Assembly (NCBI RefSeq): GCF_024700885.2 | Contig: NZ_CP117016.1 | Length of the DNA stretch: 64,000 nt | Source of the DNA: Escherichia coli | GTDB taxonomy: Bacteria; Pseudomonadota; Gammaproteobacteria; Enterobacterales; Enterobacteriaceae | Direction: 5' to 3' (one strand) | Shown here: piece by piece, positions 7,678-61,753 of the stretch | Layout of the letters: every line of letters starts with the position of its first letter | Numbering within the stretch: the stretch's first letter is position 1 | The notes under the pieces: model-generated | The model's database searches: none | Told to the model about the DNA's origin: nothing | The model's input: only the letters and a program-made list of their open reading frames with translations | Made by a program: the position numbers and the translations under genes

Positions 7678-7753
7678 TCTCCAACCCTTTAGCTCAGTGG
7701 TAAGAGGACTCATAATCGCTTGGTCGCTGGTTCAAATCCAGTAAGGGCCACCA
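7678..7753 (+). pseudogene. Degenerate tRNA-Ile(CAU)-like sequence (ileX/ileY-like), probably non-functional
   Basis: Recognisable D-arm (TAGCTCAGTGG), CAU-containing anticodon loop (CTCATAA), variable loop, T-arm (GCTGGTTCAAATCCAG) and CCA end, but the 5' strand of the anticodon stem is missing and two acceptor-stem positions are mismatched. Confidence 0.45.
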
Positions 7754-8633
7754 TCACACACTGCCACTGGCCCATTGCGCCATGCCCGGCACATATCAGT
7801 CACAGAGCCTTTCGGGGATAATTTGCAGAGTGGTCTGGCTGACTTTCTCTGTAGGCAGATCGTTCCCGCTTGATAGCTCATCCCCCAAAGAAACGTCACG
7901 ATATTTGGTATTTTCAAAATTCAAAAAGAAAACCCGCAGAGTGGCAACAGAGATTAAAAAGTTTGAGAAACGCGATCTGGCACAGGCGGTGATTGGTGTT
8001 GGAGTGATGGTAGATTTTATCAGCCGGATAATGTCGGTTCTGGCTGATAGCTGGGGTTGTTGGTGTGGTCTTCCTATTGATGAAAAAACAAGCAATTACT
8101 TGGCATATTATCTGTAACACTTTAAAACTGTTAAGAAGATCACAATTCATTATGTTTATTATTGTCTGGCCGGAGGGATATTTGTTAAAAAGTGCGCCGT
8201 GTGGTGAATCCCCCTGTGCGGTGGGGCGACTGGTGTACATAGCATTTATTATGTTATGAGCGAAGCCTACGCGGGTTCAGTGACACCGACTGAATTCACC
8301 GGGAGGCACCCGGCACCATGCAACAGACGCAAGTTAGGCTAAGCCTTATACCCCTGTAAGTTTTTTACAGGGTTTTTTTGTGCACAGAAAACCCCCAGCT
8401 AGGCTGGGGGGGCCGGAAAGCTTTCAGCTTTGAGCCAGTTATTAAAACTCTGAACCGGTTCCTGGCACGAATATCATTCCCGGCCTGCGCTTTGATTATC
8501 TCAGCGACTCCGGCGGGAACTTCAGCCGCAGTCTGAATCTTTCGCAGGAATTGGGCGATTATTTCAAAGTCAAAGCAGGGGTTGCCCGAACCTTTAAAGC
8601 CCCAAACTGTACTGACCCCAAAAAGTTGGACAG

Positions 8634-9486
8634 TTAAACACGAGGCATATAGGTCTGATTCCGATATTCAATTGGAGTCAGACCTTTTAATTTCAGGCTA
8701 ATTCTTCTGCTGTTGTAGTATTCAATATATTCCGTAACAGCATCCTTCAGTTCGCTTATATTACTGAACTCATCAAGATAAAAACACTCCGACTTTAAGG
8801 TTCCAAAGAAACACTCCACCACAGCATTATCCAGACAATTGCCTTTTCTGGACATGCTTTGTTTAATACCATGTTCTTTAAGGATATTTTGATATCTTCT
8901 CATACGATACTGCCATCCCTGGTCAGAGTGCAGAACAGGATGCTCGTGAGGATTAAGCATTTTTGAATGCCTGATCGAGCATATTCTCAACCATGTTCAT
9001 CACTGGTCTTTCCGAAAGGCTGTAAGAAATAACATCATTGTTGAAGAGATCTATTACTGGAGACAAATACAGCTTGCGCCCATTGACTGCAAATTCAGTA
9101 ACATCGGTAACCCACTTCTCGTTTGGCCGCGTAGCCTTGAAATCTCTTTGGAGAACATTGGGGGCGGTTTGCCCTACCTCTCCTCTGTAAGAGCGGTATC
9201 GCTTGACCTTAATCGCTGCCTTAAGTGAGAGGGTTCCCATCAGGCGCTGAACAGCTTTATGGTTAATCTGTTTCCCTTCTCGATGAAGAGACAGCGTTAC
9301 CCTACGGTATCCGTATCGGCCTCTATTCTCATGATAAATCTCACCAATACGCTTTTTAACGTCCGCATACTTGTCAGGCTTGCTGAGAGCCTTTAGATGG
9401 TAATAAAACGTACTGCGCGGTATCTCCGCAGCCCTGAGAAGCTCATCAAGAGGATAAAACTGCCTTAGCTCGTTGAGTACTTTCAC
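8634..9486 (-). pseudogene. insK: IS150 OrfB transposase (InsK-like), apparently frameshifted
   Basis: Two overlapping ORFs in different frames (9486->8953 and 8990->8634) covering DDE integrase-core sequence; total span 853 nt, one more than an intact 852-nt orfB would need. Confidence 0.5.
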
Positions 9487-10004
9487 TTTTTCGTGGAATG
9501 AGCTAAGGCTTTCAGCTTTTTTAGATACACAAGCCGCGTTTCAAGAAATCGAACTTGCCTTTCAAGATCCTCAATGCGTCGGTCTTTTGACAGCTCCAAT
9601 GCTGATGCCGCTTTTTCTGGATCAACTGATATTGCAATGTTTCTTTTGGTGCCAATCTTGAGCGCGCGTAAACCAGCTTCTCCGCGCTCTTCATAAACCT
9701 TCAGCCACCTGGCTACAGAACCACTACCAGCAAGCATAAAGTGAGCAGCAGCCTGATTAAGGGACATGTGCTGCTCGATCACAGCTTTCACGACCTTAAT
9801 ACGCAACTCTGGATCAGCACTAACACCTTTAGGTTTGGGAATTAAACCTTTTTCTCCATGTTTTTCATAGAGGGCAACCCATGTCCTGACCTGGATTCGG
9901 GGGGCACCAAAACGTGCCGAGATGATCCTGTAACCATCATCAGTAGTGAAGTAGTGATTCACGACTTCAAGGCGCTTTTCAAAAGGGTATTTTGGCTTTG
10001 ACAT
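9483..10004 (-). CDS. insJ: IS150 OrfA (InsJ-like, HTH protein)
   Basis: 173-aa ORF MSKPKYPFEKRLEVVNHYF…; ATGA overlap with orfB start. Confidence 0.7.
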   Translation of the reverse strand: MSKPKYPFEKRLEVVNHYFTTDDGYRIISARFGAPRIQVRTWVALYEKHGEKGLIPKPKGVSADPELRIKVVKAVIEQHMSLNQAAAHFMLAGSGSVARWLKVYEERGEAGLRALKIGTKRNIAISVDPEKAASALELSKDRRIEDLERQVRFLETRLVYLKKLKALAHSTKK

Positions 10005-10966
10005 ATCAGGGGCTATTCCATTTCATCGTCCAACAAAATGGGTGCAGTACAAACCTGTATCAATCCAGTGAAGGCTATCTGCTCTACTCGAAAGGCAATG
10101 GCTGTCCAAAAGATATTACATCAGGCGGGTGCTACCTGATCGGTAATAAAGATCTCGATCCGGAAATCAGTGTCAATAAAGAAATTGGGCTGGAGTTCAC
10201 CTGGGAAGATTACCACGCAAGTGTGACCTACTTCCGCAATGATTACCAGAATAAGATCGTGGCCGGGGATAACGTTATCGGGCAAACCGCTTCAGGCGCA
10301 TATATCCTCAAGTGGCAGAATGGCGGGAAAGCTCTGGTGGACGGTATCGAAGCCAGTATGTCTTTCCCACTGGTGAAAGATCGTCTGAACTGGAATACCA
10401 ATGCCACATGGATGATCACTTCGGAGCAAAAAGACACCGGTAATCCTCTGTCGGTCATCCCGAAATATACTATTAATAACTCGCTTAACTGGATCATCAC
10501 CCAGGCGTTTTCTGCCAGCGTCAACTGGACGTTATATGGCAGACAAAAACCGCGTACTCATGCGGAAACCCGCAGTGAAGATACTGGCGGTCTGTCAAGT
10601 AAAGAGCTGGGCGCTTATTCACTGGTGGGGACGAACTTCAATTACGATATTAATAAAAATCTGCGTCTTAATGTCGGCGTCAGTAATATCCTCAATAAAC
10701 AGATCTTCCGATCTTCTGAAGGGGCGAATACCTATAACGAGCCAGGCCGGGCTTATTATGCCGGAGTTACCGCATCATTCTGATCGTAGTGTTTCAGGCG
10801 CACTGCCCGTGTAAAAGCGGGCAGTGTTTAGTGGCTTAACTCATGACAACCTGCTGTGTAATTTGCGTTTTCACCACTGATATCTAACAGTGCCTGGCGA
10901 AAGGAGGCATTAAACATTGGCCCGTGTCCCAGGTTGGGGAAATCCCAAAATACGGCATTGACGCCT

Positions 10967-11785
10967 TTATCTTTCAGTATAGTGAGGGGGGGGATAAATT
11001 TTCGACAGCACCCCGACAGCATGCGTTTCCCGGTTATCACCCTGTGTCGCCGAGCCTTCCATTATCGCCAGGTGTTTGGCGAAGAATTGCAGAGGCTCAA
11101 CCGCCGTAACGCGGCTTAGCAAAGCATCATAACCTCTGCCCAACGACGGGCTGGCGCTGTAGTACGACCGGAAGTAAGAGGAGGACAGCCAGGAATCCAG
11201 CACGAAGAGGCCGCCGTAGGAGTGCCCCCATAAGCCGCGGCGTTGCCGATCGATATTCAGTCCCTGTTCCACTTTTGGGGCAATACGCGTTTCCAGTAAC
11301 TGGCGGAAGTTGTTGCTGCCACCACTCTTACGGCTAAAACGCCCTGAGTGGAGATCTGTTTTTCTGCTTTCTGTTGCTGGCATATAGTCGTAAGCCCTGC
11401 TGTTGAGATCGAAAGGGAGGTTGGTCTGATACCCGACAGCCACGATCACTGGCGGTGTTTTTTCTGACAATTGTTTGAGCAGTTCGTCATCCAGGCGGTC
11501 CATAACTGCGTTACCGTCAAGCATATATAAAATCGGGTAACCCGATGCCGGTGCGGTTGTATTCGGCACGGCCGTCCATACCCGATAATGGCGTGTGCCA
11601 TCGACAGAGTCGAAAGAGGTGGCGCTGAAATGGTAAAACACGGAGCCTTTATCGGCTATATTCGGCCCCAGTGGCCGCATATCCGGCTTCGCATAAACTT
11701 GCGCACTACAGATAAGGGTGAGGCAAGAAAGATGAAAGAAAATCGCTTTATGCGGGCGTGTTGAGCGATACTCGCGGGCATACAT
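10967..11785 (-). CDS. iroE: Salmochelin periplasmic esterase IroE-like (alpha/beta hydrolase)
   Basis: ORF with signal-like N-terminus and GHSYGG serine-hydrolase motif; between iroD-like gene and convergent iroN; real start may lie upstream of first ATG. Confidence 0.6.
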   Translation of the reverse strand: MYAREYRSTRPHKAIFFHLSCLTLICSAQVYAKPDMRPLGPNIADKGSVFYHFSATSFDSVDGTRHYRVWTAVPNTTAPASGYPILYMLDGNAVMDRLDDELLKQLSEKTPPVIVAVGYQTNLPFDLNSRAYDYMPATESRKTDLHSGRFSRKSGGSNNFRQLLETRIAPKVEQGLNIDRQRRGLWGHSYGGLFVLDSWLSSSYFRSYYSASPSLGRGYDALLSRVTAVEPLQFFAKHLAIMEGSATQGDNRETHAVGVLSKIYPPPHYTER

Positions 11786-11869
11786 CTGATGATTATTCCT
11801 TTTCCGCAGGTGACAATTTGATTTATTCAGGAAGTCTGTACCGTTTCCTGAAAGTGTTTGTGGGTCAAC

Positions 11870-13099
11870 TCAACCCTGTAGTAAACCAATCCCGTCAATC
11901 AGTGCACCGCGCCACCATGCGTAATCGTGACCACCGGTGTAGATTGCGCAATGGCTTTCGACGCCAGCGGTAATCAGCCGCTGGTGAAGTTGCTGAACGT
12001 GAGGCACTGTCGAACCTTCCAGCGATCCCACGCACAGGCTGATACGCACGCCCTGCGGTGGGGCAGAAAGCAGATGCTCACTCACCCATGAGGTATCGGT
12101 TTCGCTGAACAAGCCTGGTCGACTGGTTCTTTCTGGCGTCCACCACATTGAAGGAGAGTGGCTGAGCACCAGACCGAACGTTTCCGGTGCGTAACGAGCC
12201 CCCATTAGCGCACTGATCCCGCCGAGGCTCTGCCCGGCCAGCACTGTGCGCGAACGGTCTGCCCACTGACGCTGCGGTTGTTCAGCGCGGATCATCGGCA
12301 GCAGATGTCCTGCGATATCCTTTATCAGCTTGCTGCGCCCGCCGAGTATCTCAGTGCGTTCATGTTCATTAATGTTGTCAATGCCCAGTACAGCCACGGG
12401 CACGATGCGCCTGTTATTTATGGCGGCGTCAATTGCCGCGCATACGCCAAGGTGATCAAACCAGGTTTCACCATCGGGCAGCACGACCAGCCCGAGGGGC
12501 TGAGAAATATCAATGTCCGGAATATAGAGCCGAACCTGGCGAGATTTCCCGGCGATAATGCGCATGGAGGTAAGCAGTTGTCCGGTGTGGAAGCCGCCGT
12601 TCCATTCCGACAGGGCGGGAGCTTTATCAAGTGTCAGCACTGATTCCTTTGCGTTTCCCCGAACGTTGATCTCCGGCATTTTGTTTAGCGGATCGGCCTT
12701 TCCGGCGAGGGTGGCAAAACGGCCTCCGGACAGTGCAATCGTCTCAGCCGTAGTGCCGGGGGGGATTTCCAGCAGCGAATAGGAGCCGCAGTAACTTGCG
12801 GGTAAACGCAGTGTCAGTGTCCAGATATCCGTTTCGGGAAGGGCGCTCATCATTCCTTTTTCTACGTGCTCTTTATCCGTCACCCGGTTCAGACGCTGAC
12901 AAACGCCCTGCAGAGGATGTCGGGCGCGCCACAGAAAGGTCACTTCTCGCTCATCTTCCGCTCCTTCGACTGGCGTCACAAGAGGAACATTCAGCGACTC
13001 AGCTTCGCGCCAGAAGTCAGTAAGGTTAGCAATGTGGCCCGCTGCCAGTTGGTTGCGCAGGCTGGCGATAGCAGAGGGATGTTGTTGCATGTTCAGCAT
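11870..13099 (-). CDS. iroD: Enterochelin/salmochelin esterase IroD-like (Fes family)
   Basis: 409-aa ORF with esterase motif GQSLGG; position between iroC remnant and iroE. Confidence 0.6.
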   Translation of the reverse strand: MLNMQQHPSAIASLRNQLAAGHIANLTDFWREAESLNVPLVTPVEGAEDEREVTFLWRARHPLQGVCQRLNRVTDKEHVEKGMMSALPETDIWTLTLRLPASYCGSYSLLEIPPGTTAETIALSGGRFATLAGKADPLNKMPEINVRGNAKESVLTLDKAPALSEWNGGFHTGQLLTSMRIIAGKSRQVRLYIPDIDISQPLGLVVLPDGETWFDHLGVCAAIDAAINNRRIVPVAVLGIDNINEHERTEILGGRSKLIKDIAGHLLPMIRAEQPQRQWADRSRTVLAGQSLGGISALMGARYAPETFGLVLSHSPSMWWTPERTSRPGLFSETDTSWVSEHLLSAPPQGVRISLCVGSLEGSTVPHVQQLHQRLITAGVESHCAIYTGGHDYAWWRGALIDGIGLLQG

Positions 13100-13202
13100 T
13101 CATACTCTTTAAAAATTAAGGATGTCAGTATAAATAATTAAAGCGGCTATTCACGGTACCGCCGCTTCTGACTGTGTTTTTAATACATTACGTGTCCAGT
13201 AA

Positions 13203-14396
13203 CTATCCCGGGGTTTCCTCCTTCATGTTGTGCTGGCGATGGAGCGCAGTACTGCTGACGTTGTCATGCCATAAGCGGGTATAGAGGCCGCCTGCAGATA
13301 ACAGCTGTTCGTGGGTTCCGTATTCCGCAAGTAACCCCTTATCAATAACGGCAATCAGATCGCAGCGTTGCGCGGTGGTCAGACGATGTGCAACAATCAG
13401 CGCCGAGTGCTTCCCGGCATGCACGACATCTGTTAACGATGACATCAGTCGTTCTTCGGATGTGCGATCCAGACATGACGTGGCTTCGTCGAGCAGCAGG
13501 ATGTGAGCATTCGCCAGTTGCGCGCGGGCCAGCGCAATCAACTGGCGCTGACCTGCGGACAGATCGGCTCCGCCGTTATTCACCGGTGTCCGGAATCCCT
13601 GCGGCAGATTGCACACCATCTCATACAGCCCTGCCCGCTGTGAGGCAATTTCAACGTCTTCATTGGTGGCGGATGCCGTGAATAACGAATGTTTTCTGCA
13701 ATATCACTACTAAACAGTGCTACATCCTGATCGACAAGCCCAATCTGGCGACGATACTCAGTGAGCGAGGCATCATCGAGCATTTGCACACCGATTCTGA
13801 TGTTGCCGTGCGTGGGGAAATACAACCCGGCAATCAGCTTAATCAGCGTCGACTTACCCGCACCGCTGCGACCGACGACCGCGACAACCATTCCCTCAGG
13901 GATCGTCAGGGTAAGTTTGTTCAGAGCTGGCTCGTGACTGGCGGGATAACTGAACGTGACCTCATCAAGATGCAGTGCACCGGTGACGGGGAGGAGCGAA
14001 GAGGACCCGAGGTCCTCAGTGCCTTCTGTCGCCAGTAGTTCATCAATATGTTTGCCGCTGGCTGTCGCCTGCTGCCAGGCGTTGACAATCCTTGATAACT
14101 GCTGCCAATCCTCGATCGAATAGAGCGGAATACGCAGTTGCGCGGAAGCGCTCCGATAACGCGCGCAGCGGGACGCCCTCCAGTTCCTGCTGATTATGCG
14201 ATTGCACGACGCGCAGGCCGGAGACTTTCTCCTGCAGGGTGCTTGTTGACTTTGCCCGTGCCTGTGCATAAGAAGGGGTACTGAGGCGGCGATAAATCAT
14301 GGTTGCCATTGCGGCCACTGGCACTGTGCTTAATGCCGTCAGCGCCAGGAACGGGTCGAGCCAGAACATGGTGGCGGCGATTGCGAACATTGTCAC
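13203..14396 (-). pseudogene. iroC: ABC exporter IroC, 3' remnant, frameshifted
   Basis: Three consecutive ORFs in alternating frames carrying Walker A (GRSGAGKST), ABC signature (LSAGQRQ) and Walker B (ILLLDEATS); only about 400 C-terminal codons of a much longer exporter; no iroB-like gene upstream. Confidence 0.55.
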
Positions 14397-14922
14397 CAGA
14401 CTGGTGGCCGCACCGGTAAGGCCGTTTTGCAGAAAGCGGGCGAGAGAGTCTACATCCCCATTTACCGTCTTATATCACTGGTGCTGGCAGACAGGAGTTT
14501 CATGAAACAATAACCCGAAATCACCAGTGTCGTTCAATGTGGCAACTGTTGGAAAAGGTTCGTCACTTTATGGTTACCGTCAGCCTATTCCCCGGTGGAA
14601 TGCATGGGCTAGCTAAAGTGTAGCAGTATTAGGATCTGTTATTTAGATTCGCAGGTGGGGGAGTGGGTAACGGATAATTCTACCGTAGCTAAACACAATC
14701 CGATAAATAAATAGCCCTATTGAGTTGTGGGTGGATGTAGTGATAATTGATGGATAAAAATATTATTTTTTTTGATGCTGATACCTTAATGGTTAATGAA
14801 CCAAATGGAATAATCTTAGTGTGTTGCTTTTTTATCTGACGTTAATTCCGCACTTGCTTATTATGCACAGAAAACATGGCGATAGTTTGCTAGGGTTATT
14901 TTGAGGAAAGTAAAGTATAATT

Positions 14923-15690
14923 ATGAAATGTATGAAATGGATGTGGATTGTGTCATCAAAAATACTTTTATCCCTTAGTTTTTTTTCATTTGCAAATGAA
15001 CAAGTGTTTGGAAATGTTGAAAACAATTCAAAGGTATTTTCTTTGCGTTTAGATACAACCCGTGTTGTCTATAACCAAGGTTCGTCTGGAGAAACATTGG
15101 CAGTCATTAATGAGCATGATTATCCGATATTAGTTCAGGCAGAGGTGCTGCTTGAAGACCAAAGAACTCCAGCGCCTTTTGTAATAACGCCACCACTGTT
15201 TCGGCTTGATGCTCTACAATCTAGTCGTCTTCGTATTATTCAAACTGGAGGTGATTTCCCGACAGATCGTGAAACTCTACAGTGGGTTTGTATAAAGGGG
15301 ATCCCGCCGAAAGTTGATGATAAGTGGGCTGAGGAAAATAGTAAGAATAAAGATGGTACAGATAAAGTAGCTCTAGACATACAAGTTTCTGTTAAAAGTT
15401 GCATTAAATTATTTGTCCGTCCGAAAATGGTGAAAGGTCATCCAGATGACGTTGCCGAAAATGTAAAATGGCAGAAGGTTGGTAATAGGTTGAAAGGAGT
15501 AAACCCAACACCGTTCTATATAAATCTTGCGGAATTGAAAGTGGGCGAAAAAGAAATACTGGAGCGTCATTATATAGCGCCATTTGGCTCTTATGAATAT
15601 CCTATCGATATGAATTGGAAGGGGGGGGTTACATGGAGAATAGTGACCGATTATGGTGGGATCAGTAACCAATTTGAAGCAAAGCTTTAA
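14923..15690 (+). CDS. Fimbrial periplasmic chaperone (PapD-like; AggD/AfaB class)
   Basis: 255-aa, signal peptide, chaperone-like fold sequence; first gene of chaperone-usher-invasin-pilin operon; very AT-rich. Confidence 0.65.
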   Translation: MKCMKWMWIVSSKILLSLSFFSFANEQVFGNVENNSKVFSLRLDTTRVVYNQGSSGETLAVINEHDYPILVQAEVLLEDQRTPAPFVITPPLFRLDALQSSRLRIIQTGGDFPTDRETLQWVCIKGIPPKVDDKWAEENSKNKDGTDKVALDIQVSVKSCIKLFVRPKMVKGHPDDVAENVKWQKVGNRLKGVNPTPFYINLAELKVGEKEILERHYIAPFGSYEYPIDMNWKGGVTWRIVTDYGGISNQFEAKL

Positions 15691-15708
15691 GCTTGATGAA
15701 TTTTTTTT

Positions 15709-18315
15709 GTGAATAAAATTATGAAAGAATACATCTGTAATGCCTCTCTATGCAGTACATCTTTGTGTACTCAAAAAAATAAGCTCTCATATACAACATT
15801 ATTTATAATAATTATATCTTCATTTTTTTATGTGGGGGATGTGGCAGCACGTTCGTATTCGTTTGACGCATCATTATTAAACGGAGGTGGTAAAGGGGTA
15901 GATTTGAGGTTACTTGAAAATGGAGGACAACTACCTGGTATCTATCCAGTTGATATTATTTTGAATGGTGCCCATGTTGAATCAAGAGATATGTTTTTTC
16001 ATACAGGGAGAGATATACATGGAAAAGATTATCTAAAGGCCTGTTTGACCAAGGAAATGTTAATACGTTATGGAGTAAAAGTTGAAGAATATCCCGGTCT
16101 TTTTCGAATTGATAGTGAAAAGGAACGAGGTAGAGATATTTGTGCTGACTTATCAGTAATACCTCAAGCTACAGAATATTATCGATTCCTATCACAGCAA
16201 TTAATAATTGGAATTCCGCAGGTGGCAATTCGTCCATCATTGACAGGAATTGCACCTGAAGTAATGTGGGATGATGGTATCGATGCATTTGTAGTGAATT
16301 GGCAGGCGGAAGCGAGTCGTTTTGACTATAGAGGCTACGGCAGGAATTCTTCAGATAATTTTTGGTCCAGTTTTGAACCGGGGATTAATATAGGCGCTTG
16401 GCGCCTCAGAAATCTAACTACTTGGAATAAATCATCTGGACAATCGGGTAAATGGGATAGTTCATATATACGGGCTGAACGTGGATTGAACAGCATTAGA
16501 AGTCGTTTGACTTTAGGTGAAGGCTATTCTCCTGCGGATATTTTTGACAGTGTTCCTTTCCGGGGAGGAATGTTAGGAACTGATGAATATATGATTCCAT
16601 ATAATCAGCGGGAGTTTGCGCCAGTGGTAAGAGGAATAGCTCGAACTCAAGCCCGAATTGAAGTACGTCAAAATGGGTATCTGATACATAGTCAGATAGT
16701 TGCACCGGGGGCTTTTGCTTTGAACGACCTTCCGGTGACAGGCTCCAGTGATGATTTACAAGTGGCAATTCTGGAATCAGATGGCACTATACAGTCCTTT
16801 AAAATACCCTTCACTTTGCCGGCTATTGCTCTACGTGAAGGATATCTAAAGTATAATGTAACCGTAGGGCAATATCGGCCATCGGATAGTGGGGGGGAAA
16901 AAGCATACTTGGCGCAATCGACTGTTATGTATGGTTTACCATGGGGGGTGACGGCATTTGCTGGAGTTCAGGGGGCCGAACATTATCGGGCTGGTGCACT
17001 GGGGTTAGGATTGTCGCTGGGGAATTTCGGTGCTATGTCACTAGATACCATTTATTCTCGAGGGCAACAAAAGGGATATGATTATGAAACAGGACAAACT
17101 TGGCGTATTCGTTACGACAAGTCCTTTGGACTGACAGGAACCAGTTTTGCGGCTGCGAGTTATCAATATTCAGGTGAAAATTATCACACATTAGCGGATG
17201 TTTTGAATACTTATAATAATGTCACTAGCCTCATAGACAGGAATTTTGATAACAAAACTCGTCGGATTACTATGAATATAAACCAGCCTCTTGGCCGTTG
17301 GGGGTATGTGGGGTTGAATGGAGGACGTGATGTATATCGTAGTAAACCAAATCAAGATTATATTGGAGCGTCTTATAGTACTTCATGGAAAAATATTTCC
17401 CTTTCATTAAATTGGTCACGGAATCTTAATCTTGGGAACTGCAACGGTAGACGTTTCTGTACAGAGGATAATTTCAACATGTGGATAAGTGTTCCTCTGC
17501 AGCGCTGGTGGGGGGGATATGATAATGATATCTATGCCACGGCACAGATGCAGCGTTCAACCAGACAAAACTCCAGTTATGAAGTAGGCTTGAGTGGACG
17601 CGCTTTTGAAAGAAAATTGAACTGGGATGTTAGTGAGCAGATAGTACCAGGTAGCAAATATGATGCAGATACAGGTCGGTTAAAGTTACGTTGGTCTGGA
17701 ACCTATGGCGAATTGGCGGGAATGTATAGTTATAATACTAACACCCGTCAGATGAACCTAGGGATGTCTGGAAGTATGGTTATGCATAGCGAAGGTCTAA
17801 CTTTCGGTCAGAGAACTGGAGACACGATAGGCTTGATTGTTGCTCCGGATGTAGCAGGGGCTTCAGTCAGCGGCTGGCCTGGTGTAAGTACAGGCTCCCG
17901 TGGATATGGGGTGGTAGGTTATGTATCACCATACCAGGAAAATGTCCTCACACTGGATCCGACGACTTTCCCTGAAAATGTAGAAGTCCCACAGACAGAT
18001 AGTCGTGTTGTTCCGACGAAAGGAGCAGTTGTCCGGGCTGAATTTAAGACCCGAGTGGGAAAACGTGCTGTGCTGAATCTGATCCGTAAAGATGGAACGC
18101 GTTTACCATTCGGTACAGTGATAACCTTGGAAGGAAAAGTATCCGGTTCTGTAGGGGTGGTAGATGACAAGGGGGCTGTGTATCTGAGTGGCCTGTCTGA
18201 AACAGGAAAACTAAAGGCACAGTGGGGAAGGAATAGTCAATGCTATGCAGACTACATTCTTCCAAAAGAAAAGGGGCCAGCCGGAGTTTTTTTAACAAAT
18301 GCGGTATGCATATGA
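15709..18315 (+). CDS. Fimbrial outer-membrane usher (AggC/AfaC class)
   Basis: 868-aa ORF typical usher size, C-terminal cysteine pair; operon context. Confidence 0.7.
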   Translation: MNKIMKEYICNASLCSTSLCTQKNKLSYTTLFIIIISSFFYVGDVAARSYSFDASLLNGGGKGVDLRLLENGGQLPGIYPVDIILNGAHVESRDMFFHTGRDIHGKDYLKACLTKEMLIRYGVKVEEYPGLFRIDSEKERGRDICADLSVIPQATEYYRFLSQQLIIGIPQVAIRPSLTGIAPEVMWDDGIDAFVVNWQAEASRFDYRGYGRNSSDNFWSSFEPGINIGAWRLRNLTTWNKSSGQSGKWDSSYIRAERGLNSIRSRLTLGEGYSPADIFDSVPFRGGMLGTDEYMIPYNQREFAPVVRGIARTQARIEVRQNGYLIHSQIVAPGAFALNDLPVTGSSDDLQVAILESDGTIQSFKIPFTLPAIALREGYLKYNVTVGQYRPSDSGGEKAYLAQSTVMYGLPWGVTAFAGVQGAEHYRAGALGLGLSLGNFGAMSLDTIYSRGQQKGYDYETGQTWRIRYDKSFGLTGTSFAAASYQYSGENYHTLADVLNTYNNVTSLIDRNFDNKTRRITMNINQPLGRWGYVGLNGGRDVYRSKPNQDYIGASYSTSWKNISLSLNWSRNLNLGNCNGRRFCTEDNFNMWISVPLQRWWGGYDNDIYATAQMQRSTRQNSSYEVGLSGRAFERKLNWDVSEQIVPGSKYDADTGRLKLRWSGTYGELAGMYSYNTNTRQMNLGMSGSMVMHSEGLTFGQRTGDTIGLIVAPDVAGASVSGWPGVSTGSRGYGVVGYVSPYQENVLTLDPTTFPENVEVPQTDSRVVPTKGAVVRAEFKTRVGKRAVLNLIRKDGTRLPFGTVITLEGKVSGSVGVVDDKGAVYLSGLSETGKLKAQWGRNSQCYADYILPKEKGPAGVFLTNAVCI

Positions 18316-18330
18316 CTGGAGTAAGAAATA

Positions 18331-18765
18331 ATGAGATACCGTATAATGTCTTTATCCTGTGTAGTGTTTCTGATGATAGGAGGACTGTCTCAGGCTGCAG
18401 AGATTACGTTAGTAAGCCACAGGAGTACGGGAAGTCAGTTACGTGATGGCATGATACTGGCGACAGGACGAATTATCTGTCGGGAAATACATACAGGGTT
18501 TCAGATATGGATGAATGATCGTCAAGAGGGAGGACATCCGAGGCATTATGTTATACAAAATAGTAAAGGAAACCAAGGCGAGTTACGGGTCAGGATAGGC
18601 GGTAATAGCTGGTTTTCTTCTTTGGATGAAGAATGGCAGGGGTGGATCAGGCTAGGAAAGGAAAAACAAGTTAATTTTGATGTGATAGTCGATGGAGAAC
18701 AGTATATTCCTCCAGGTAAATATATATTCTCAGTAAGTGGTAAATGTATGGCATCAGAGATATAA
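18331..18765 (+). CDS. AfaD/AggB-like invasin subunit
   Basis: 144-aa secreted protein with …ATGRIICREIHTGFQIWMNDRQ… region resembling AfaD-family invasins. Confidence 0.55.
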   Translation: MRYRIMSLSCVVFLMIGGLSQAAEITLVSHRSTGSQLRDGMILATGRIICREIHTGFQIWMNDRQEGGHPRHYVIQNSKGNQGELRVRIGGNSWFSSLDEEWQGWIRLGKEKQVNFDVIVDGEQYIPPGKYIFSVSGKCMASEI

Positions 18766-18875
18766 GAGTATGTGTCTACTGATACTATTTTGATTTTTAT
18801 AATATTTCATATTAATTGTATGGAAAATATTATTTCTATTTAAGTAGTAGTTAATGTTATTTAAGAGAGGTTTAT

Positions 18876-19391
18876 ATGAAAAAGAGTATCTATTTCATTA
18901 TATGTCCAGTTCTTTCTCTATATTGTGGAATGACGATGGCTAAAACATCACCACCGTCAACTACTATTTCTAGTGATAGCACTGCATTTGCGCAAGGTAC
19001 GATCGTAATAACTAACAATTGTAAGGTTAGTATCACCACCCCTACAAAAATTGAACGTCCTGCTACAGAGGCCACAAAAACTGATTACGTGACTTTTAAT
19101 ATTACTCAAACTCCGTCTTGTGCAAATATAGGCTCCAGAATTGCTTATTGGTCTGAAGGAAGTCAGTCAGCTTTTCGTATGGTCAATACAAGTAATCCTA
19201 CTTCATTTTACACTTTTCAAACCGTTAGCGAATCTCCTGCAACAGATACAAGATATGGGGGGGGTAAAATGTATGGGCTAGCTCGTGCAGGGGTTCGGAG
19301 CCTAAATGTAAGTATCCAAATTCCCCAAGCAAATAATTATCTTCCTGGTCAATATACAATTGGTCTTAACGCAGGCTTGGTCATAAACTAA
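18876..19391 (+). CDS. Fimbrial major subunit / adhesin (AAF/Afa-Dr-like pilin)
   Basis: 171-aa signal-peptide protein, Ser/Thr-rich, last gene of the chaperone-usher operon. Confidence 0.55.
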   Translation: MKKSIYFIICPVLSLYCGMTMAKTSPPSTTISSDSTAFAQGTIVITNNCKVSITTPTKIERPATEATKTDYVTFNITQTPSCANIGSRIAYWSEGSQSAFRMVNTSNPTSFYTFQTVSESPATDTRYGGGKMYGLARAGVRSLNVSIQIPQANNYLPGQYTIGLNAGLVIN

Positions 19392-19916
19392 ATAATAATC
19401 AGAGTGTAAGCAGCAAATGTAGGGATGTATTAGTTATAAAGGAATATATCTAGTATAGAATATATAATTCTTTCTACAAATATTGCTGCTAAATCCTCGT
19501 TGTCTATTCAGAGGAAAGGACATAGTATATATCGCAAGATTATAGGATGAAAGGCCTCGGGGCTGCTTTATCCAACGAGGTCAGTCCTTTCCTCTCTATT
19601 TGTTCAAATTCCAGAATATGTGTTAGATCGTATTCTTTTCAAAAAGAGGAGAGATTCCCGTTTGGCGGAAATTTCAGAACAATATCCATTAGTTAGAATT
19701 GATAAAATTGAATTTAAAAATTATGCTATAGTCAGTATTGCATTTAATTGTCAGTTGCATCTTTTGTTGGGTAGAAAAGCAGGATCTAACTGTGAAGTTT
19801 TATTATCTATCTGCTAATATTTTAAAGTGTAGTATTAAGGAAAAACATTTTTAGTATATCATCCATCAACTCCTATTCAGGAGTTGTTTAACTACAAAAG
19901 AAGCTAGGAGATTATT

Positions 19917-20264
19917 ATGAAAAAACTTAATGTGTCAATTTTTTCTATTGCGGCTTGTTTTAGTCTTAATGTATTTGCTGGTGGAGGAGGATGGAATTCG
20001 GATCTTGTAGATCCGCAACAATGTGTAAAATTGTCAGGTGCACAGTATACATATAATAGCTCTTCTAATAAATGTATGCAAGGTATCAACGAAGGGAAAG
20101 TCCATGGTGTTTCATTATTTGGAACATTCTATTATGGCGATGGCAGCCAAGGGACTTTTAAAGGAAGAGTTTCCCCGGGGACAACACTGAATACAAATCA
20201 AGATATGAACAAAACTAATAAATATGGCGTGAAATATAAGGTTATTACTGAGTGGGTTAGATAA
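19917..20264 (+). CDS. aap: Dispersin-like secreted protein (Aap/CexE family)
   Basis: 115-aa ORF MKKLNVSIFSIAACFSLNVFA|GGGGWNSD…QYTYNSS…CMQGINEGKVHGVS…NTNQDMNKTNK; signal peptide followed by Gly-rich mature N-terminus as in dispersin. Confidence 0.65.
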   Translation: MKKLNVSIFSIAACFSLNVFAGGGGWNSDLVDPQQCVKLSGAQYTYNSSSNKCMQGINEGKVHGVSLFGTFYYGDGSQGTFKGRVSPGTTLNTNQDMNKTNKYGVKYKVITEWVR

Positions 20265-20458
20265 CTAGTCCAAGTCGTTACCGCCAAGTTTTCTTGGCGG
20301 TTAGATAGTAGATTTCGGATATGGTGGTCTTTTTCACAATTATTATAACATATATTTATCTGAGTCAGTAGATTATTGAATTCGATATCTGAAGCTAATA
20401 TGTATTAGTTCAGACCTGATCTGACAGTTACCGGTTATTTATACAGGTATCTGTCAGA

Positions 20459-21307
20459 TTACATCTGGCTTAAATTTTTCTCGGCCCAGATGCGCTTTCC
20501 ATCAAGTAACGTTTCCATTGGCGTCCGCCCATTGCTCATTTTTCCCTCATGGGGTCGCTCATTATTATAGTGAGCCAGCCATTCATCAAGATCCGACTGT
20601 AATGTATCAAGATCGCCGTACAGTTTTTTACGGAACGTTACCTGATAAAATTCGTTCAGGATTGTTTTATGGAACCGCTCGCAGGTGCCGTTGGTCTGCG
20701 GGGGCATCGCCTTTGTTTTCGTGTGTTCTATATCGTTTATTGCCAGATAAAGCTGATAATCATGCTGCTCTACTTTGCCACAGAACTCCGTGCCTCTGTC
20801 GGTCAGTATTCTCAGCATCGGCAGGCCCTGAGACGAATAAAACGGCAGTACACGATCATTCAGTAAGTCAGCCGCGCTAATCGGTGTTTTGGTGACGTAA
20901 AGCTTACAGTGAGCCACTTTCGAGTACGTATCAACGAACGTCTGCTGATAAATACGCCCGACACCTTTCAGGTTGCCTACATAGAACGTGTCCTGCGAAC
21001 CCAGATATCCCGGATGAGTCGTTTCGATTTCGCCACAGGCCTCGTAATCACTGGCTTTACGCTCCAGTGCTGCGATCTGGCTGTCAGTTAGCTCAATGCC
21101 ATCACGGGCTACTTTTTCTTCCAGTGCTTTCAGACGTTTTTTGAAATTCTCAAGGTTATGGCGTAACCAGACAGAACGGACACCACTGCCGGAGATAAAA
21201 ACGCCCTGTTTACGCAGCTCGTTGCTGGTCCGGTGCTGACCGTGTGCCGGGAAAGCGACGGCGTAATCAACAACAGCCTGTTCAGTTGCCTCATCGGTAT
21301 GGTTCAA
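20459..21307 (-). mobile_element. DDE transposase (integrase-core domain), apparently 5'-truncated IS remnant
   Basis: 282-aa ORF with integrase-core-like region (…LTDRGTEFCGK…QTNGTCERFHKTILNEF…); abuts an IS66-family fragment. Confidence 0.45.
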
Positions 21308-21332
21308 TACCCTGGTGCACTAGGTATCAGAA

Positions 21333-41023: not shown

Positions 41024-43455
41024 TCCAGCCCCATCGCCCGCAAATGCTCGGCCACTTTCTCGCTCAACGCCTCAACGGAGGCTTCAAGCGCTAGCAACGG
41101 TTCAGCATAACGCTCTTCCAGCTCCTTTACGCGCGACGCCAGTTGCTGGGTAATACGCTCAATCTCCGCCTTGATCCCTGCCTGCAACGTTGCCAGCCAC
41201 TTATCCTGCACTACCAGCGTTTTAATCGCTGCTTCATCCAGCGTGGGATAATGTTTAAACACCGCCCGATCCAGCGCTTCTTGTGCGGCTTTCAGCGCTT
41301 TTTTCGCACTGGCTTCGGCCTTAATTAGCGCCAGGCAGCGGTTCAGCACTGCCAGCTCATCTGGGCCGGCAGTGGTTTTCTTTAACTGTGCTAGACGGGC
41401 ATTCACCAGCTTTTGCGTCACCTTATCTTTATCGTTCTTCGCCTCGGCCAGCAGATCCTCTTCACCTGCCTGCTCCTCGATGAATTCCACTAGCTGACGA
41501 CTGGCTTCTTCACTGCGCTCCTGCGCGCGGTTCAGCGCATCCAGCAGTTCCGGGAAACAGCGAATTTCCACCAGCGAACGGGGCAGCACATCGGCCTTGT
41601 AGCGCCGTTTGGTAAACTCGAAATCGTGCGTTTCTTTCCAGATGTTTTTGCCATCTTTGCCTTTCACCGGCTGAAGCTCGCGGATTTGCGCGGCGGCTTG
41701 CCAGCCATCCTGCATAATCGCATACACATCGTCTTGCATGACATCAGTCCAGTAATCCATCAGGATCTGGTACACGCTGTATTTGTTCAGCAACTCACTG
41801 TTGGCGTACTGCGCCAATAGCATTTCGCTGATATCGTGGATTAGCGCTTTGGGTTTATCACCTTTGCGAATCTCTTCCAGACTTGCCTCTTTCACCCACG
41901 CTTTAAACGGTAGCAGGCTGCGGGTGGCAAAATCCTTAAACTCCTGATGCGCCAGAATGGTCGGTTTCACCTGTTGCGCGTTCACCTGCGCCCGACAGTA
42001 ACCGGGACGGTCGTCAGCAAACAGCACGTTGCGCAGGGCAGGGAATACCCGCCAGTAATCTTGCAAAGCATCCACATCGCGTGCCGGAATACCGCCCTGT
42101 AAGTGCGCGGTCAGATCGTGTAAATCTTCCGGCTCGCCGCTCTCGATATAGCGAGGAATATTCAGGTTGTAATCATTTCCGGCGATCTCGCTGGAGGGCA
42201 CCATCCGGCTGTAGCCAGGTACCGTTCGCTGATGGTTGAACACGTCCACAATGCGGTGAATATCTCGGCTACGCAGGCGGTTCTTGTTGCCATCTTTGAT
42301 AAAGCCCCGGCTGGCGTCGATCATAAAAATGCCTTTGCGGCTGTGGGCGTGCTCTTTATCAATCACAATGATGCACGCCGGGATGCCGGTGCCGTAAAAC
42401 AGGTTGGCTGGCAAACCAATAACGCCTTTGATATAGCCCTGCTTGATTAGATTTTCACGGATATTCGCTTCGGCGTTACCGCGAAACAGTACGCCGTGGG
42501 GCAGGATCACCGCGCCTTTGCCGGTACTTTTCAGGCTTTTAATGATATGCAACAAAAAAGCATAATCGCCGTTTTTTTCCGGCGGAATACCCCAGCCGAA
42601 GCGTTCAAACGGATCTTTTTTCGGCGTCAGCCCGTTGGTCCAGTTTTTATTGGAAAAAGGCGGGTTCGCCACGGCAAAATCGAAGGCTTTCAGTTTGCCG
42701 TTCGCCTCTTTCCACTGCGGATCGCTCAGCGTATTGCCCTGCCAGATTTTCGCGGTGGCATTGTTATGCAGAATCATGTTCATCCGCGCCAGCGCACTGG
42801 TAGCGTTATCCATCTCCTGGCCGAAAATCGACAGTCCGCGCCGGGCTTCATCATTCACTTTCAACAGCAGCGAACCAGAGCCACAGGTTGGGTCATAAAC
42901 CGTTGCATCTTGCGGAGTATCGGGAGTAATACCAATCACCTTCGCCAGAATACGTGACACCTCCGCTGGAGTGTAAAACTGCCCTTTACTCTTACCGGAT
43001 TCGGTTGCGAAGTGACGCATCAGATATTCATAGGCATCGCCCAGCAGATCGTCGCCTTCGGCCCGGTTGCTGGAGAGATTTAACCCTTCAAAGATACCGA
43101 CAAGCTTGCTCAGGCGGTCAATCATTTCCTTGCCTTTGCCGAGCTTATCTTCGTCGTTAAAGTCGGCTTCGTCGATGACGCCCTTCAGGCCGTTCTCTTC
43201 CGCCAGCTTGTGGATGATTTTGTTGATTTTGTCGCCGATCTCTTTGTCATTTTTCAGCGCAACCATATCGTCAAAGCTGGCTCCTTTGGGTATCACGATC
43301 ATCCCGTAAGGATCGCCTTTATACTTATCGGAAACGTACTTCATAAACAGCAGGGTCAGTACATAGTCTTTGTACTGGCTGGCGTCCATCCCGCCACGCA
43401 GTTCGTCGCAGCTTGCCCACAGGGAAGAATAGAGTTCGGTTTTTTTGATAGCCAT
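41017..43455 (-). CDS. hsdM: Type I restriction-modification DNA methyltransferase (HsdM) with long C-terminal coiled-coil-rich extension
   Basis: 812-aa; N6-adenine MTase motifs YDPTCGSGSLL (motif I) and VANPPFS (motif IV); C-terminal ~300 aa Ala/Glu/Lys/Leu-rich. Confidence 0.8.
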   Translation of the reverse strand: MAIKKTELYSSLWASCDELRGGMDASQYKDYVLTLLFMKYVSDKYKGDPYGMIVIPKGASFDDMVALKNDKEIGDKINKIIHKLAEENGLKGVIDEADFNDEDKLGKGKEMIDRLSKLVGIFEGLNLSSNRAEGDDLLGDAYEYLMRHFATESGKSKGQFYTPAEVSRILAKVIGITPDTPQDATVYDPTCGSGSLLLKVNDEARRGLSIFGQEMDNATSALARMNMILHNNATAKIWQGNTLSDPQWKEANGKLKAFDFAVANPPFSNKNWTNGLTPKKDPFERFGWGIPPEKNGDYAFLLHIIKSLKSTGKGAVILPHGVLFRGNAEANIRENLIKQGYIKGVIGLPANLFYGTGIPACIIVIDKEHAHSRKGIFMIDASRGFIKDGNKNRLRSRDIHRIVDVFNHQRTVPGYSRMVPSSEIAGNDYNLNIPRYIESGEPEDLHDLTAHLQGGIPARDVDALQDYWRVFPALRNVLFADDRPGYCRAQVNAQQVKPTILAHQEFKDFATRSLLPFKAWVKEASLEEIRKGDKPKALIHDISEMLLAQYANSELLNKYSVYQILMDYWTDVMQDDVYAIMQDGWQAAAQIRELQPVKGKDGKNIWKETHDFEFTKRRYKADVLPRSLVEIRCFPELLDALNRAQERSEEASRQLVEFIEEQAGEEDLLAEAKNDKDKVTQKLVNARLAQLKKTTAGPDELAVLNRCLALIKAEASAKKALKAAQEALDRAVFKHYPTLDEAAIKTLVVQDKWLATLQAGIKAEIERITQQLASRVKELEERYAEPLLALEASVEALSEKVAEHLRAMGLEW

Positions 43456-58467: not shown

Positions 58468-58555
58468 TGGCGGTGAGGGGGGGATTCGAACCCCCGATAC
58501 GTTGCCGTATACACACTTTCCAGGCGTGCTCCTTCAGCCACTCGGACACCTCACC
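58468..58555 (-). tRNA. serX: tRNA-Ser (anticodon GGA)
   Basis: 88-nt; reverse complement reads GGTGAGGTGTCCGAGTGGCTGAAGGAGCACGCCTGGAAAGTGTG…GGTTCGAATCCCCCCCTCACCGCCA with long variable arm; adjacent to ghrA as at the serX locus. Confidence 0.85.
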
Positions 58556-58749
58556 AAATTGTTGTTCCTGTCTTGCTGGAACGGGCGCTAATTTAGGGAA
58601 ATCATGACCTGAGGTCAACAAACTTTTTTAAAAAATCGCGCGTTTATTCAAACTTCAATCAATATGCAGTTTTAATAAGCGAAATCTGCTTTTTTTGCCA
58701 CCGACCACGGATTTGTTATGCTGGTGGCTTTTGTAGATCATAACGATAA

Positions 58750-59727
<978 letters not shown>

Positions 59728-59781
59728 TAAAGCATCAGGTTTCCTGCTATCCTTGGCGGGAATTGAATACAGGAGAGAGTT

Positions 59782-60519
59782 ATGTATCCCGTCGACCTTC
59801 ATATGCATACCGTTGCTAGCACGCATGCATATAGCACATTGAGTGATTACATTGCCCAGGCCAAACAAAAGGGCATTAAACTTTTTGCGATCACCGATCA
59901 TGGCCCGGATATGGAAGATGCGCCGCATCACTGGCACTTCATTAACATGCGTATCTGGCCGCGAGTGGTTGATGGAGTAGGGATCCTGCGCGGCATCGAA
60001 GCTAACATTAAAAATGTTGACGGTGAAATTGACTGCAGTGGCAAAATGTTTGATTCGCTGGATCTGATTATTGCCGGTTTTCATGAGCCGGTGTTTGCGC
60101 CGCATGACAAAGCGACCAATACGCAAGCGATGATCGCCACTATCGCCAGCGGCAATGTGCATATAATAAGCCATCCCGGAAATCCGAAATATGAAATAGA
60201 TGTTAAAGCCGTTGCTGAAGCAGCTGCGAAACATCAGGTGGCGCTGGAAATCAATAATTCCTCATTTTTACACTCACGTAAGGGCAGTGAAGACAACTGT
60301 CGTGCGGTAGCCGCAGCGGTACGTGACGCTGGAGGTTGGGTGGCATTAGGCTCGGATTCTCACACCGCGTTTACCATGGGTGAATTTGAAGAGTGTCTTA
60401 AAATCCTCGACGCGGTAGATTTTCCGCCAGAGCGCATTTTGAATGTTTCTCCGCGCCGCTTACTGAACTTCCTTGAATCTCGCGGTATGGCACCGATTGC
60501 GGAATTTGCAGACCTTTAA
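59782..60519 (+). CDS. ycdX: PHP-domain phosphatase YcdX
   Basis: 245-aa [18 protein letters not shown]… PHP metal-binding histidines. Confidence 0.8.
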
Positions 60520-60542
60520 TTACTAGTAATGGAAATATATTA

Positions 60543-61097
60543 ATGAACGAGTTTTCTATCCTCTGTCGTGTGCTGGGTTCGCTCTATTACCGCCAACCAC
60601 AAGATCCTTTACTGGTGCCGCTGTTTACCCTGATTCGTGAGGGGAAACTGGCTGCGAACTGGCCACTGGAGCAGGATGAGTTACTGACGCGTTTACAGAA
60701 AAGCTGTGATATGACGCAAGTCTCTGCCGATTACAATGCGTTGTTTATCGGCGATGAATGTGCTGTGCCGCCATATCGTAGTGCATGGGTTGAGGGCGCG
60801 ACGGAAGCGGAAGTGCGCACTTTTCTTTCCGAACGAGGGATGCCATTAGCGGATACGCCAGCCGATCACATCGGTACATTGCTGCTCGCGGCTTCCTGGC
60901 TGGAAGATCAGTCAACGGAAGATGAGAGCGAAGCACTGGAAACACTGTTCAGTGAGTATCTGTTACCCTGGTGTGGTGCGTTCCTCGGCAAAGTGGAGGC
61001 TCATGCAACCACGCCTTTCTGGCGCACCATGGCACCGCTAACCCGCGATGCCATTAGTGCAATGTGGGACGAGCTGGAAGAAGATTCTGAAGAGTAA
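60543..61097 (+). CDS. ycdY: TorD-family chaperone YcdY
   Basis: 184-aa; conserved order ghrA-ycdX-ycdY-ycdZ. Confidence 0.75.
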   Translation: MNEFSILCRVLGSLYYRQPQDPLLVPLFTLIREGKLAANWPLEQDELLTRLQKSCDMTQVSADYNALFIGDECAVPPYRSAWVEGATEAEVRTFLSERGMPLADTPADHIGTLLLAASWLEDQSTEDESEALETLFSEYLLPWCGAFLGKVEAHATTPFWRTMAPLTRDAISAMWDELEEDSEE

Positions 61098-61198
61098 ATG
61101 TGATCTGCATCACTCATAACTGCAACAGATAATTTGTTGTTGCATAAAATGTGTGCTCGATCTCATTCATGGCCGCGTTTTCTGCTATCATGCGCGGC

Positions 61199-61690: not shown

Positions 61691-61720
61691 GGGGCACTCA
61701 CGCTTTCGCTTAAACAGTAA

Positions 61721-61750: not shown

Positions 61751-61753
61751 CTA

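Follow-up and report, generated by a model that had tools for sequence, protein, structure and literature searches.

A decayed salmochelin (iroBCDEN) locus in a mosaic genomic island of Escherichia coli

Organization of the iro remnant

Alignment of a 64-kb stretch of Escherichia coli DNA, referred to here in its entirety as the window, to the intact iro locus of E. coli Nissle 1917 identifies positions 8451–14456 as a remnant of an iroBCDEN cluster. The iroN-iroE-iroD-iroC segment is 98.7% identical to that of Nissle overall, and 99.2% identical within its main block of 4057 bp; identity to plasmid-borne iro loci is 98.2–98.4%, such that the remnant is nearer to the chromosomal Nissle type. 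An initial annotation had described a decayed salmochelin locus at 8445–14470 and asked for such an alignment to define the deletion endpoints. That description stands with respect to iroN, iroC, iroB and an IS150 insertion with its target duplication, and both edges are now located, the breakpoints lying at 8451 and 14456.

The left deletion edge abuts iroN and consists of a left-end stub of an IS200 element (8375..8450, + strand; ∼74 bp), which includes the left-end hairpin AAACCCCCAGCTAGGCTGGGGG. The stub is 97% identical to Nissle coordinates 15932–16005 (record L002), 75–148 bp upstream of the tnpA gene of IS200C. We considered and rejected the idea that the two represent the same insertion; sequence to the left of the stub has no match to the Nissle IS200C flank, and these are therefore two separate insertions.

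What is left of iroN lies in two pieces on the + strand. Codons 432–483 (8451..8607) form an ungapped match to L002 6847–7003, and the final codon, AAC at 8605–8607, is also the left copy of a target-site duplication. After a 1444-bp IS150 copy (8608..10051, − strand) and the right 3-bp AAC copy (10052..10054, + strand), codons 484–725 and the native stop follow (10055..10783), with 97.6% amino-acid identity to Nissle IroN 481–725. Both fragments have 98–99% nucleotide identity to Nissle iroN and translation runs on between them; removal in silico of IS150 and one AAC yields Nissle iroN exactly, as one frame to the native stop, which confirms the split and resumed frame originally proposed. 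Target duplications of IS150 are 3 bp long, in agreement with the AAC seen here. The initial annotation had iroN lacking its 5' half; the loss is real, but extends to codons 1–431 of 725 (59%), with the remainder split after codon 483. No full-length receptor, with its signal peptide, plug and entire barrel, is encoded, the remnant covering positions 434–727 of the 727 in a FepA-family TonB-dependent receptor model.

The IS150 copy is 99% identical to the 1443-bp IS150 of K-12, a member of the IS3 family, from which it differs by 15 substitutions and one 1-bp insertion. Its length, TGTACTG termini, 3-bp duplication and orfA/orfB content are those of IS150, and its open reading frame pieces match an IS3-family transposase model. 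The termini and the intact orfA (9483–10004) are shared with the K-12 element, whereas orfB is split into 8953–9486 and 8634–8990. Because the extra T at 8959 splits orfB, which carries the catalytic domain, the copy cannot encode its own transposase; PGAP labels this gene "frameshifted".

At the other end of the locus, the iroC remnant (13203..14456, − strand) matches codons 752–1219 of 1219, the region of the second nucleotide-binding domain. It is 1254 nt long, or about 418 codons, in keeping with the roughly 400 frameshifted C-terminal codons first reported, and carries four lesions: a −1 at 13675, replacement of 174 bp by 31 bp at 14106–14136, an additional T at 14243, and a 10-bp deletion at 14256. 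The full-length IroC ABC exporter (1219 aa, two half-transporters) is thus reduced to this one stretch with its four indels.

The right deletion edge is a stub of the C-terminal part of an IS630-family transposase (14457..14623, + strand; coding fragment 14492–14623), as seen in the PGAP annotation of strain MLI114 and the junction sequence, and it has replaced the 5' portion of iroC together with iroB and the promoter region. An origin from ISEc40, which flanks iroN in Nissle, was rejected as there is no similarity. A tblastn search with Nissle IroB found no match in the 64-kb window, in accord with the earlier view that no iroB-like gene is present; the Nissle DNA match stops at L002 11557, and the iroB gene for the C-glucosyltransferase occupies 13950–15065. 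A scan with the Fur-box consensus, allowing up to 3 mismatches, found no site in the window, whereas in Nissle, the positive control, it found two overlapping sites upstream of iroB; by this consensus scan there is no Fur-regulated promoter region. We note that the IS150 frameshift, the 74-bp IS200 stub and the IS630-family stub had all been overlooked previously.

The esterase genes iroE and iroD

Two esterase genes lie between iroN and iroC, both on the − strand. The first of these, iroE (10828..11785), had been thought to look intact and is in fact a pseudogene: an extra G in a run of eight (G8, 10986–10993) leaves an open reading frame (10967–11785) that stops at 272 aa, with its last 8 residues foreign. 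The frameshift falls after about residue 264–267, and the alignment to PDB 2GZR ends at residue 264. The catalytic dyad of IroE is Ser189/His287 (PMC10515146); Ser189 (GHSYGG) is kept and His287 is lost to the frameshift, such that no complete periplasmic esterase is encoded. The truncated product had no match in an NCBIfam scan, its identity coming instead from PDB 2GZR and the Pfam Esterase family. RefSeq marks iroE as "frameshifted" in MLI114, where the sequence is identical.

In contrast, iroD (11870..13099) is an intact open reading frame, as first annotated, and is the only iro gene in the window of which this is true. The 409-aa product is a Fes-like catecholate esterase with Pfam Enterochelin_N and Esterase matches, is 99.5% identical to Nissle IroD (differing by Y67C and L68Q), and has a GQSLGG motif that aligns to Fes structures, as expected of the cytoplasmic esterase. 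The initial suggestion of two orphan esterases therefore reduces to at most one in the window, iroE being broken, although sister haplotypes keep both reading frames (see below).

The glucosyltransferase, the exporter, the receptor and the periplasmic esterase are all missing or broken, and, judging from the published roles of the genes, the locus should be able neither to make nor to import salmochelin. We regard it, with high confidence, as a non-functional relic of the iroBCDEN salmochelin cluster; the mosaic genomic island that houses it runs up to tRNA-Ser (serX).

Genomic setting

The island ends at a tRNA-Ser(GGA) gene (58468–58555) that adjoins ghrA and csg. Its cargo includes Ag43, Afa/AAF-like fimbriae, toxin-antitoxin modules and many IS fragments, and GC content along it swings between 0.30 and 0.58. 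The term pathogenicity island, applied at the outset, may be roughly right as regards the mosaic structure, the tRNA-Ser end and the virulence-associated cargo, although the annotation of the near-identical MLI114 sequence contains no integrase gene across the 64 kb. The far boundary would lie next to agaR.

Distribution and age of the decayed locus

The closest complete genome, MLI114, is identical to the window over 24 kb and has 3 mismatches over 49.6 kb. PGAP/RefSeq annotates iroN, iroE, iroC and the IS150 transposase as pseudogenes in its identical sequence. The initial annotation had asked whether iroB and an intact iroN are present elsewhere in the genome; with MLI114 as a proxy, nothing points to a second iro locus, its chromosome having one iroE place and its two plasmids no iro gene.

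About 51 complete E. coli chromosomes have the same architecture; chromosomal places number 305 for iroE and 254 for iroB. We sampled nine haplotypes (MLI114, TW01221, RIVM_C029670, ECONIH1, SW4848, GPEC874, FDAARGOS_1289, SK0832 and NCTC86). The breakpoints, the IS150 copy, the IS200 stub and the IS630-family stub are identical in all nine, which share 99.4–100% identity.

This recurrence bears on the possibility, raised for iroC with the initial annotation, that sequencing or assembly mistakes account for the frameshifts in iroE, iroC and IS150 and that the genes are really intact at these points. The iroE lesion does lie in an 8-G homopolymer, a classic site of long-read error, and seven related records have G7 at this run. 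However, the same G8 is seen in 35 records that come from many projects, three of them of NCTC86 type; the iroC lesions include a net loss of 143 bp and a 10-bp deletion, unlike homopolymer errors; the lesions recur across the nine haplotypes; and the large truncations would be left untouched by errors of this kind. Since the frameshifts are common to about 51 independent complete assemblies, we reject this explanation and give it next to no credence. The lesions are real features of a decayed locus.

The presence of the decayed locus in NCTC86, Escherich's isolate of 1885, shows that the large truncations were fixed before that date. The initial proposal of an intermediate stage of loss is thus not sustained in the sense of a recent process, as the same truncations occur in about 51 genomes, in diverged haplotypes and in NCTC86. 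Lineages differ only by small, later lesions: G7 or G8 and the stop codon Y87* in iroE, the −1 in iroC, and insertions of IS4 or IS100. The −1 frameshift of iroC is absent from RIVM_C029670 and SW4848; NCTC86 and SK0832 have an extra IS4 insertion and a deletion within IS150; and FDAARGOS_1289, SW4848 and GPEC874 have IS100 upstream.

Both the iroE and iroD reading frames are kept in five of the nine haplotypes (TW01221, RIVM_C029670, ECONIH1, SW4848 and GPEC874), and among the remainder iroE has been lost in two distinct ways, through the G8 frameshift and, in FDAARGOS_1289, through Y87*. The homopolymer itself would have arisen from ACCACCC, turned into C7 by three substitutions in the lineage of the window, and the tract is not present in ECONIH1-type haplotypes or in Nissle. 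In the same lineage, slippage from C7 to C8 would then have removed the catalytic His287. One could instead view the poly-C tract as a contingency locus that switches iroE on and off by phase variation, and not as a site of decay. G7 and G8 are both present among close relatives: TW01221 (G7) is only 3 SNPs from the window over 6.3 kb, and the G8 carriers SK0832 and NCTC86 are 29 and 23 mismatches away across two aligned blocks, a pattern that therefore implies repeated length change or recombination. Nonetheless, no partner genes are left for iroE to work with, the tract arose only inside an already dead locus, and one lineage lost iroE through a stop codon and not through tract length. We consider such a switch very unlikely, and ordinary decay of iroE the better account.

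Is iroD maintained?

The reading frame of iroD is undisrupted in all nine haplotypes, and that of iroE is open in five, while the flanking remnants gained stop codons and frameshifts; IroD also retains its catalytic GQSLGG motif and alignment to the full Fes-like fold. These features could reflect selection of iroD, and of iroE where open, as a stand-alone catecholate esterase, serving as a backup to Fes or processing siderophores imported through FepA, Cir or Fiu, with a promoter within what is left of iroC, or upstream of it, driving transcription.

We therefore compared substitution counts across the nine haplotypes of the decayed clade with those between intact loci. Nonsynonymous and synonymous changes in the clade number 7:3 in what remains of iroN, 12:6 in iroE, 14:10 in iroD and 7:4 in what remains of iroC. 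The omega of iroD comes to about 0.47, several times the 0.06–0.11 between intact loci (14:10 versus 4:15; Fisher's test, p = 0.028), and this rise indicates relaxed constraint. The iroD ratio is no different from that of the flanking pseudogenes (Fisher p = 0.59) and lies marginally below what neutrality predicts (binomial p = 0.095). The clade has also acquired three stop codons and two frameshifts, none of them in iroD, but survival of its frame is not statistically surprising: given five disruptive mutations in its neighbours and equal rates, the probability of no event in iroD is 0.12. Radical changes (W213R, G254R, V154G and R69C) segregate in iroD, and iroE has been killed twice, by the G8 frameshift and by Y87*. 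The operon has lost its Fur-box region, and a consensus promoter scan of the 103 bp upstream of iroD found nothing convincing.

Selective retention of a stand-alone esterase is accordingly improbable in our estimation, and we think it no less doubtful that iroD (and iroE where open) is maintained as a working esterase by read-through transcription from the side of the IS630 stub or a fimbrial promoter. Were it so, mostly commensal lineages would gain additional iron release from their own or their neighbours' enterobactin-type siderophores. It is more likely that iroD is a relic that has not yet been broken than that its function has been retained.

A proposed history of decay

A plausible history begins with an ancestral cluster closest to the chromosomal B2 type of Nissle. 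A deletion ending in the IS200 left-end stub would have taken the iroN promoter and codons 1–431, IS150 would then have entered iroN at codon 483, and a deletion ending at the IS630-family stub would have taken iroB along with the Fur-box region and codons 1–751 of iroC. We infer the order of these events from the anatomy of the locus; all three are presumably older than the split of the haplotypes seen here, and the smaller lesions probably came later, at different times in each lineage. This would leave iroD as an open frame that is drifting, with the operon's known Fur-box region gone.

The locus provides a dated series of pseudogene decay, with truncations before 1885 and later lesions lineage by lineage, including a homopolymer built by substitution that appears to have slipped. 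It is a textbook example of an accessory operon wrecked by IS-mediated deletions and then eroded by point lesions, and as such carries little biological weight. The decay is already marked in public annotation, with pseudogenes in about 50 genomes, and is ordinary gene decay. Our literature search, in which "iroN" is indistinguishable from "iron" as a term, found no paper describing this structure, and the iro locus goes unmentioned in the NCTC86 literature searched.

Comparison with known iro loci

Screens that score the presence or absence of virulence genes will call iroN, iroC, iroD and iroE "present" in strains of this type that can neither make nor use salmochelin. In a strain table of ST38 O86:H18 isolates with no plasmid replicon detected, iroC, iroD, iroE and iroN were scored and iroB was not (PMC10654095). 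This is the pattern that such a screen would return for a locus like that in the window, and these isolates may carry one, although the published table gives the gene set and not the locus structure.

The closest intact counterpart is iroBCDEN of Nissle 1917, with a locus of the same type in ABU 83972. Gene order and orientation are the same, iroN(+), iroE(−), iroD(−) and iroC(−), but iroB, the Fur-box region and codons 1–751 of iroC and 1–431 of iroN are missing from the window, which has IS150 within iroN and a frameshifted iroE. The neighbours also differ, with Afa/AAF-like fimbriae in the window and foc/sfa fimbriae and ISEc40 in Nissle.

Anatomy of the salmochelin remnant

The window locus is a relic of the salmochelin gene cluster; it is old, occurs widely and has been annotated before. 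Alignment to the intact iroBCDEN locus of Nissle 1917, our reference for its anatomy, gives 99.2% identity with two 1-bp indels over window positions 10050–14105 and 92% over 14137–14456, and the initial annotation was correct in reading a decayed salmochelin locus here. Positions 8451–8607 are an ungapped match to iroN nucleotides 1293–1449, and iroN therefore lacks codons 1–431 of its 725. The codons kept, 432–483 and 484–725, are separated by a 1444-bp IS150 on the minus strand (8608–10051), which is flanked by AAC at 8605–8607 and 10052–10054. Removal of IS150 and one AAC in silico yields the exact Nissle sequence across the junction and a single open frame that runs to the native stop, in agreement with the proposed insertion with AAC duplication and exact resumption of frame. 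This IS150 is itself defective: relative to the K-12 element it has 15 substitutions and one additional T at 8959, and that insertion breaks orfB into pieces of 177 and 118 aa.

The iroC gene is, as previously described, a frameshifted C-terminal remnant, and relative to Nissle it carries four lesions: a 1-bp deletion at 13675, an unrelated 31 bp (14106–14136) replacing 174 bp, an extra T at 14243, and a 10-bp deletion at 14256. Homology to iroC ends at 14456, codon 752 of 1219, and a C-terminal fragment of an IS630-family transposase (14492–14623) lies just beyond. At the left edge, iroN codon 432 abuts a 74-bp piece (8375–8448) that matches the left end of the Nissle IS200C at 97% identity; in Nissle the matching segment sits 75–148 bp upstream of tnpA. 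Both large deletions therefore end in insertion sequence debris. The IS630-family fragment is unrelated to ISEc40, the element that flanks iroN in Nissle. Positions 8169–8383 (plus strand) strongly match the Rfam sRNA family STnc100, scoring 136 bits where the gathering score is 47, and the terminator T-run of this match adjoins the IS200 stub.

In agreement with the initial annotation, no iroB was found anywhere in the 64-kb window. Nissle has a Fur-box-like site upstream of iroB (15503–15527 of the reference locus, L002); at a stringency that detects it, no such site was found in the whole window.

Window positions 1–24000 are 100% identical to the chromosome of E. coli MLI114 (NZ_CP117013.1), and 14397–64000 match it with 3 mismatches. 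In RefSeq, the corresponding identical part of MLI114 is already annotated with most of the features that the initial annotation described: an IS150-family transposase labelled 'frameshifted', iroN 'missing N-terminus', iroE 'frameshifted', an intact iroD, iroC 'frameshifted; missing N-terminus', and an IS630-family transposase fragment. The MLI114 chromosome has a single iroE place, and its two plasmids (an 80.8-kb IncI1 and one of 8.3 kb) carry no iro genes.

Disruption of iroE

The sole error of observation in the initial annotation concerns iroE, which was taken to be intact and is broken in the window. Where Nissle has GTGAGGGTGGTATGAA, the window has GTGAGGGGGGGGATAAA, with one base in excess in a run of eight Gs (10986–10993; G8). 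The frame reads ...SKIYPPPHYTER and ends at 272 aa rather than 318, and alignment of the product to the crystal structure 2GZR ends at residue 264. PMC10515146, with reference to Larsen et al. 2006, names Ser189/His287 as the catalytic dyad of IroE; the truncated product therefore keeps the nucleophile motif and loses His287. The suggestion of two orphan esterases is thus not supported in the window.

The run was built stepwise, from CAT ACC ACC CTC in Nissle through CAT CCC CCT CTC in ECONIH1-type haplotypes and TAT CCC CCC CTC in TW01221-type haplotypes, a C7 state that keeps the frame, to C8 in the window. Among complete genomes, 35 records have G8 and seven have G7. Only 3 SNPs distinguish the G7 haplotype TW01221 from the window, against 23 and 29 mismatches across the two aligned blocks for NCTC86 and SK0832, which carry G8; the run must therefore have changed length more than once, or been transferred by recombination.

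Constraint on iroD

The claim that iroD is intact holds: it is a clean 409-aa frame, differing from Nissle by the adjacent replacements Y67C and L68Q and three synonymous changes, with Enterochelin_N and Esterase domains and a GQSLGG motif that aligns to Fes structures. Within the decayed clade we counted nonsynonymous and synonymous changes of 14 and 10 in iroD, with no disruptive event; 7 and 3 in the iroN remnant (one stop); 12 and 6 in iroE (one stop and the frameshift); and 7 and 4 in the iroC remnant (one stop and one frameshift). The iroD ratio does not differ from that of the other three regions (Fisher p = 0.59). It does differ from the 4:15 counted between the intact loci of Nissle, pFY26-1 and pEC244_2 (p = 0.028), and omega is ∼0.47 as against 0.06–0.11 between those loci. 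The neighbouring 2.9 kb has five disruptive events, and on that basis iroD would have none with a probability of 0.12. On these counts iroD appears to be under relaxed constraint and simply to have escaped disruption so far. A consensus scan of the 103 bp upstream of iroD found no promoter.

Distribution and age of the decayed locus

A 7-kb query around the remnant is recovered almost in full from 52 complete E. coli genomes. The collection has 305 chromosomal places for iroE and 254 for iroB; the difference of 51 equals the 42 + 3 + 6 top-ranked records of the iroE search, and every one of these that was opened has the decayed architecture. Genome counts (905 with iroE, 875 with iroB) imply at least 30 genomes with iroE and iroB nowhere.

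All breakpoints are common to nine haplotypes of 99.4–99.9% identity (the window, TW01221, SK0832, NCTC86, RIVM_C029670, FDAARGOS_1289, ECONIH1, SW4848 and GPEC874). NCTC86 is Escherich's 1885 isolate, of phylogroup A and ST10 (PMC5793043); its locus has the G8 frameshift, and both its IS4 insertion and its deletion within IS150 recur in the modern isolate SK0832. The truncations are therefore old and stable and are not artefacts of assembly; the locus is not a fresh intermediate of loss. Later lesions differ between lineages. Five haplotypes have an open iroE. In FDAARGOS_1289, iroE has Y87* and the iroN and iroC remnants have stop codons as well. The iroC −1 deletion is missing from RIVM_C029670 and SW4848.

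Some carriers of the decayed locus, such as RIVM strains, have a second iroE place. In RIVM_C029670 and records HG994850 and HG994851 it is chromosomal, and these carriers keep a less decayed state, with G7 in iroE and, in RIVM_C029670, no iroC −1 deletion; gene conversion from a second, intact copy might account for this.

Island context and comparison with known loci

The remnant lies within an apparent mosaic island ending at tRNA-Ser(GGA) (58468–58555), which adjoins ghrA and csg genes. Its cargo includes Ag43, a type I restriction-modification system with DarTG, CbtA/YeeU-type modules, group II intron pieces and many IS fragments; no integrase gene is annotated in the near-identical 64 kb of MLI114. 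A tRNA-model match at 7683–7750 (plus strand), which ARAGORN does not call, is marginal at 30.7 bits (gathering score 29); it could represent a degenerate tRNA or what is left of an old island attachment site. At 34232–41054 (3207380–3214277 in the MLI114 record) a DarT/DarG DNA ADP-ribosyltransferase toxin-antitoxin pair is flanked by the S and R subunit genes of the type I system, and an M48 peptidase gene follows; together they seem to form a composite defence island. Two group II intron domain matches in opposite orientation (27235–27314, minus; 28751–28830, plus) enclose an IS481-family transposase gene and an orphan maturase-domain frame, and are fragmented intron copies.

The window opens with the end of agaR adjoining a truncated UxaA-family hydrolase pseudogene (1–1339) and closes with tRNA-Ser, ghrA and csgDEFG (58468–64000). 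In K-12, agaR and csg lie ∼2 Mb apart. Either a large rearrangement may have had one of its endpoints in the island, or this lineage may have its own native gene order.

An Afa/AAF-like chaperone-usher operon (chaperone, usher, AfaD-family invasin and putative pilin) immediately adjoins the iroC stub. It is followed, in this order, by genes for an FtsX-like ABC permease, a TolC-like outer-membrane protein, a weakly HlyD-like protein, an ABC ATPase and a 348-aa protein of unknown type; an AraC-family regulator comes further on (14923–27135 and 30541–31338 in all). These five genes and the regulator resemble the aatPABCD dispersin/CexE export module with its AggR/Rns-type regulator. A dispersin-clade CexE homologue is reported in NCTC86 (preprint 10.1101/375527).

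Our literature search found no published description of the remnant's structure. A published table of ST38 strains lists iroC, iroD, iroE and iroN without iroB in isolates without a plasmid replicon, and a gene screen of a window-type locus would give the same pattern.
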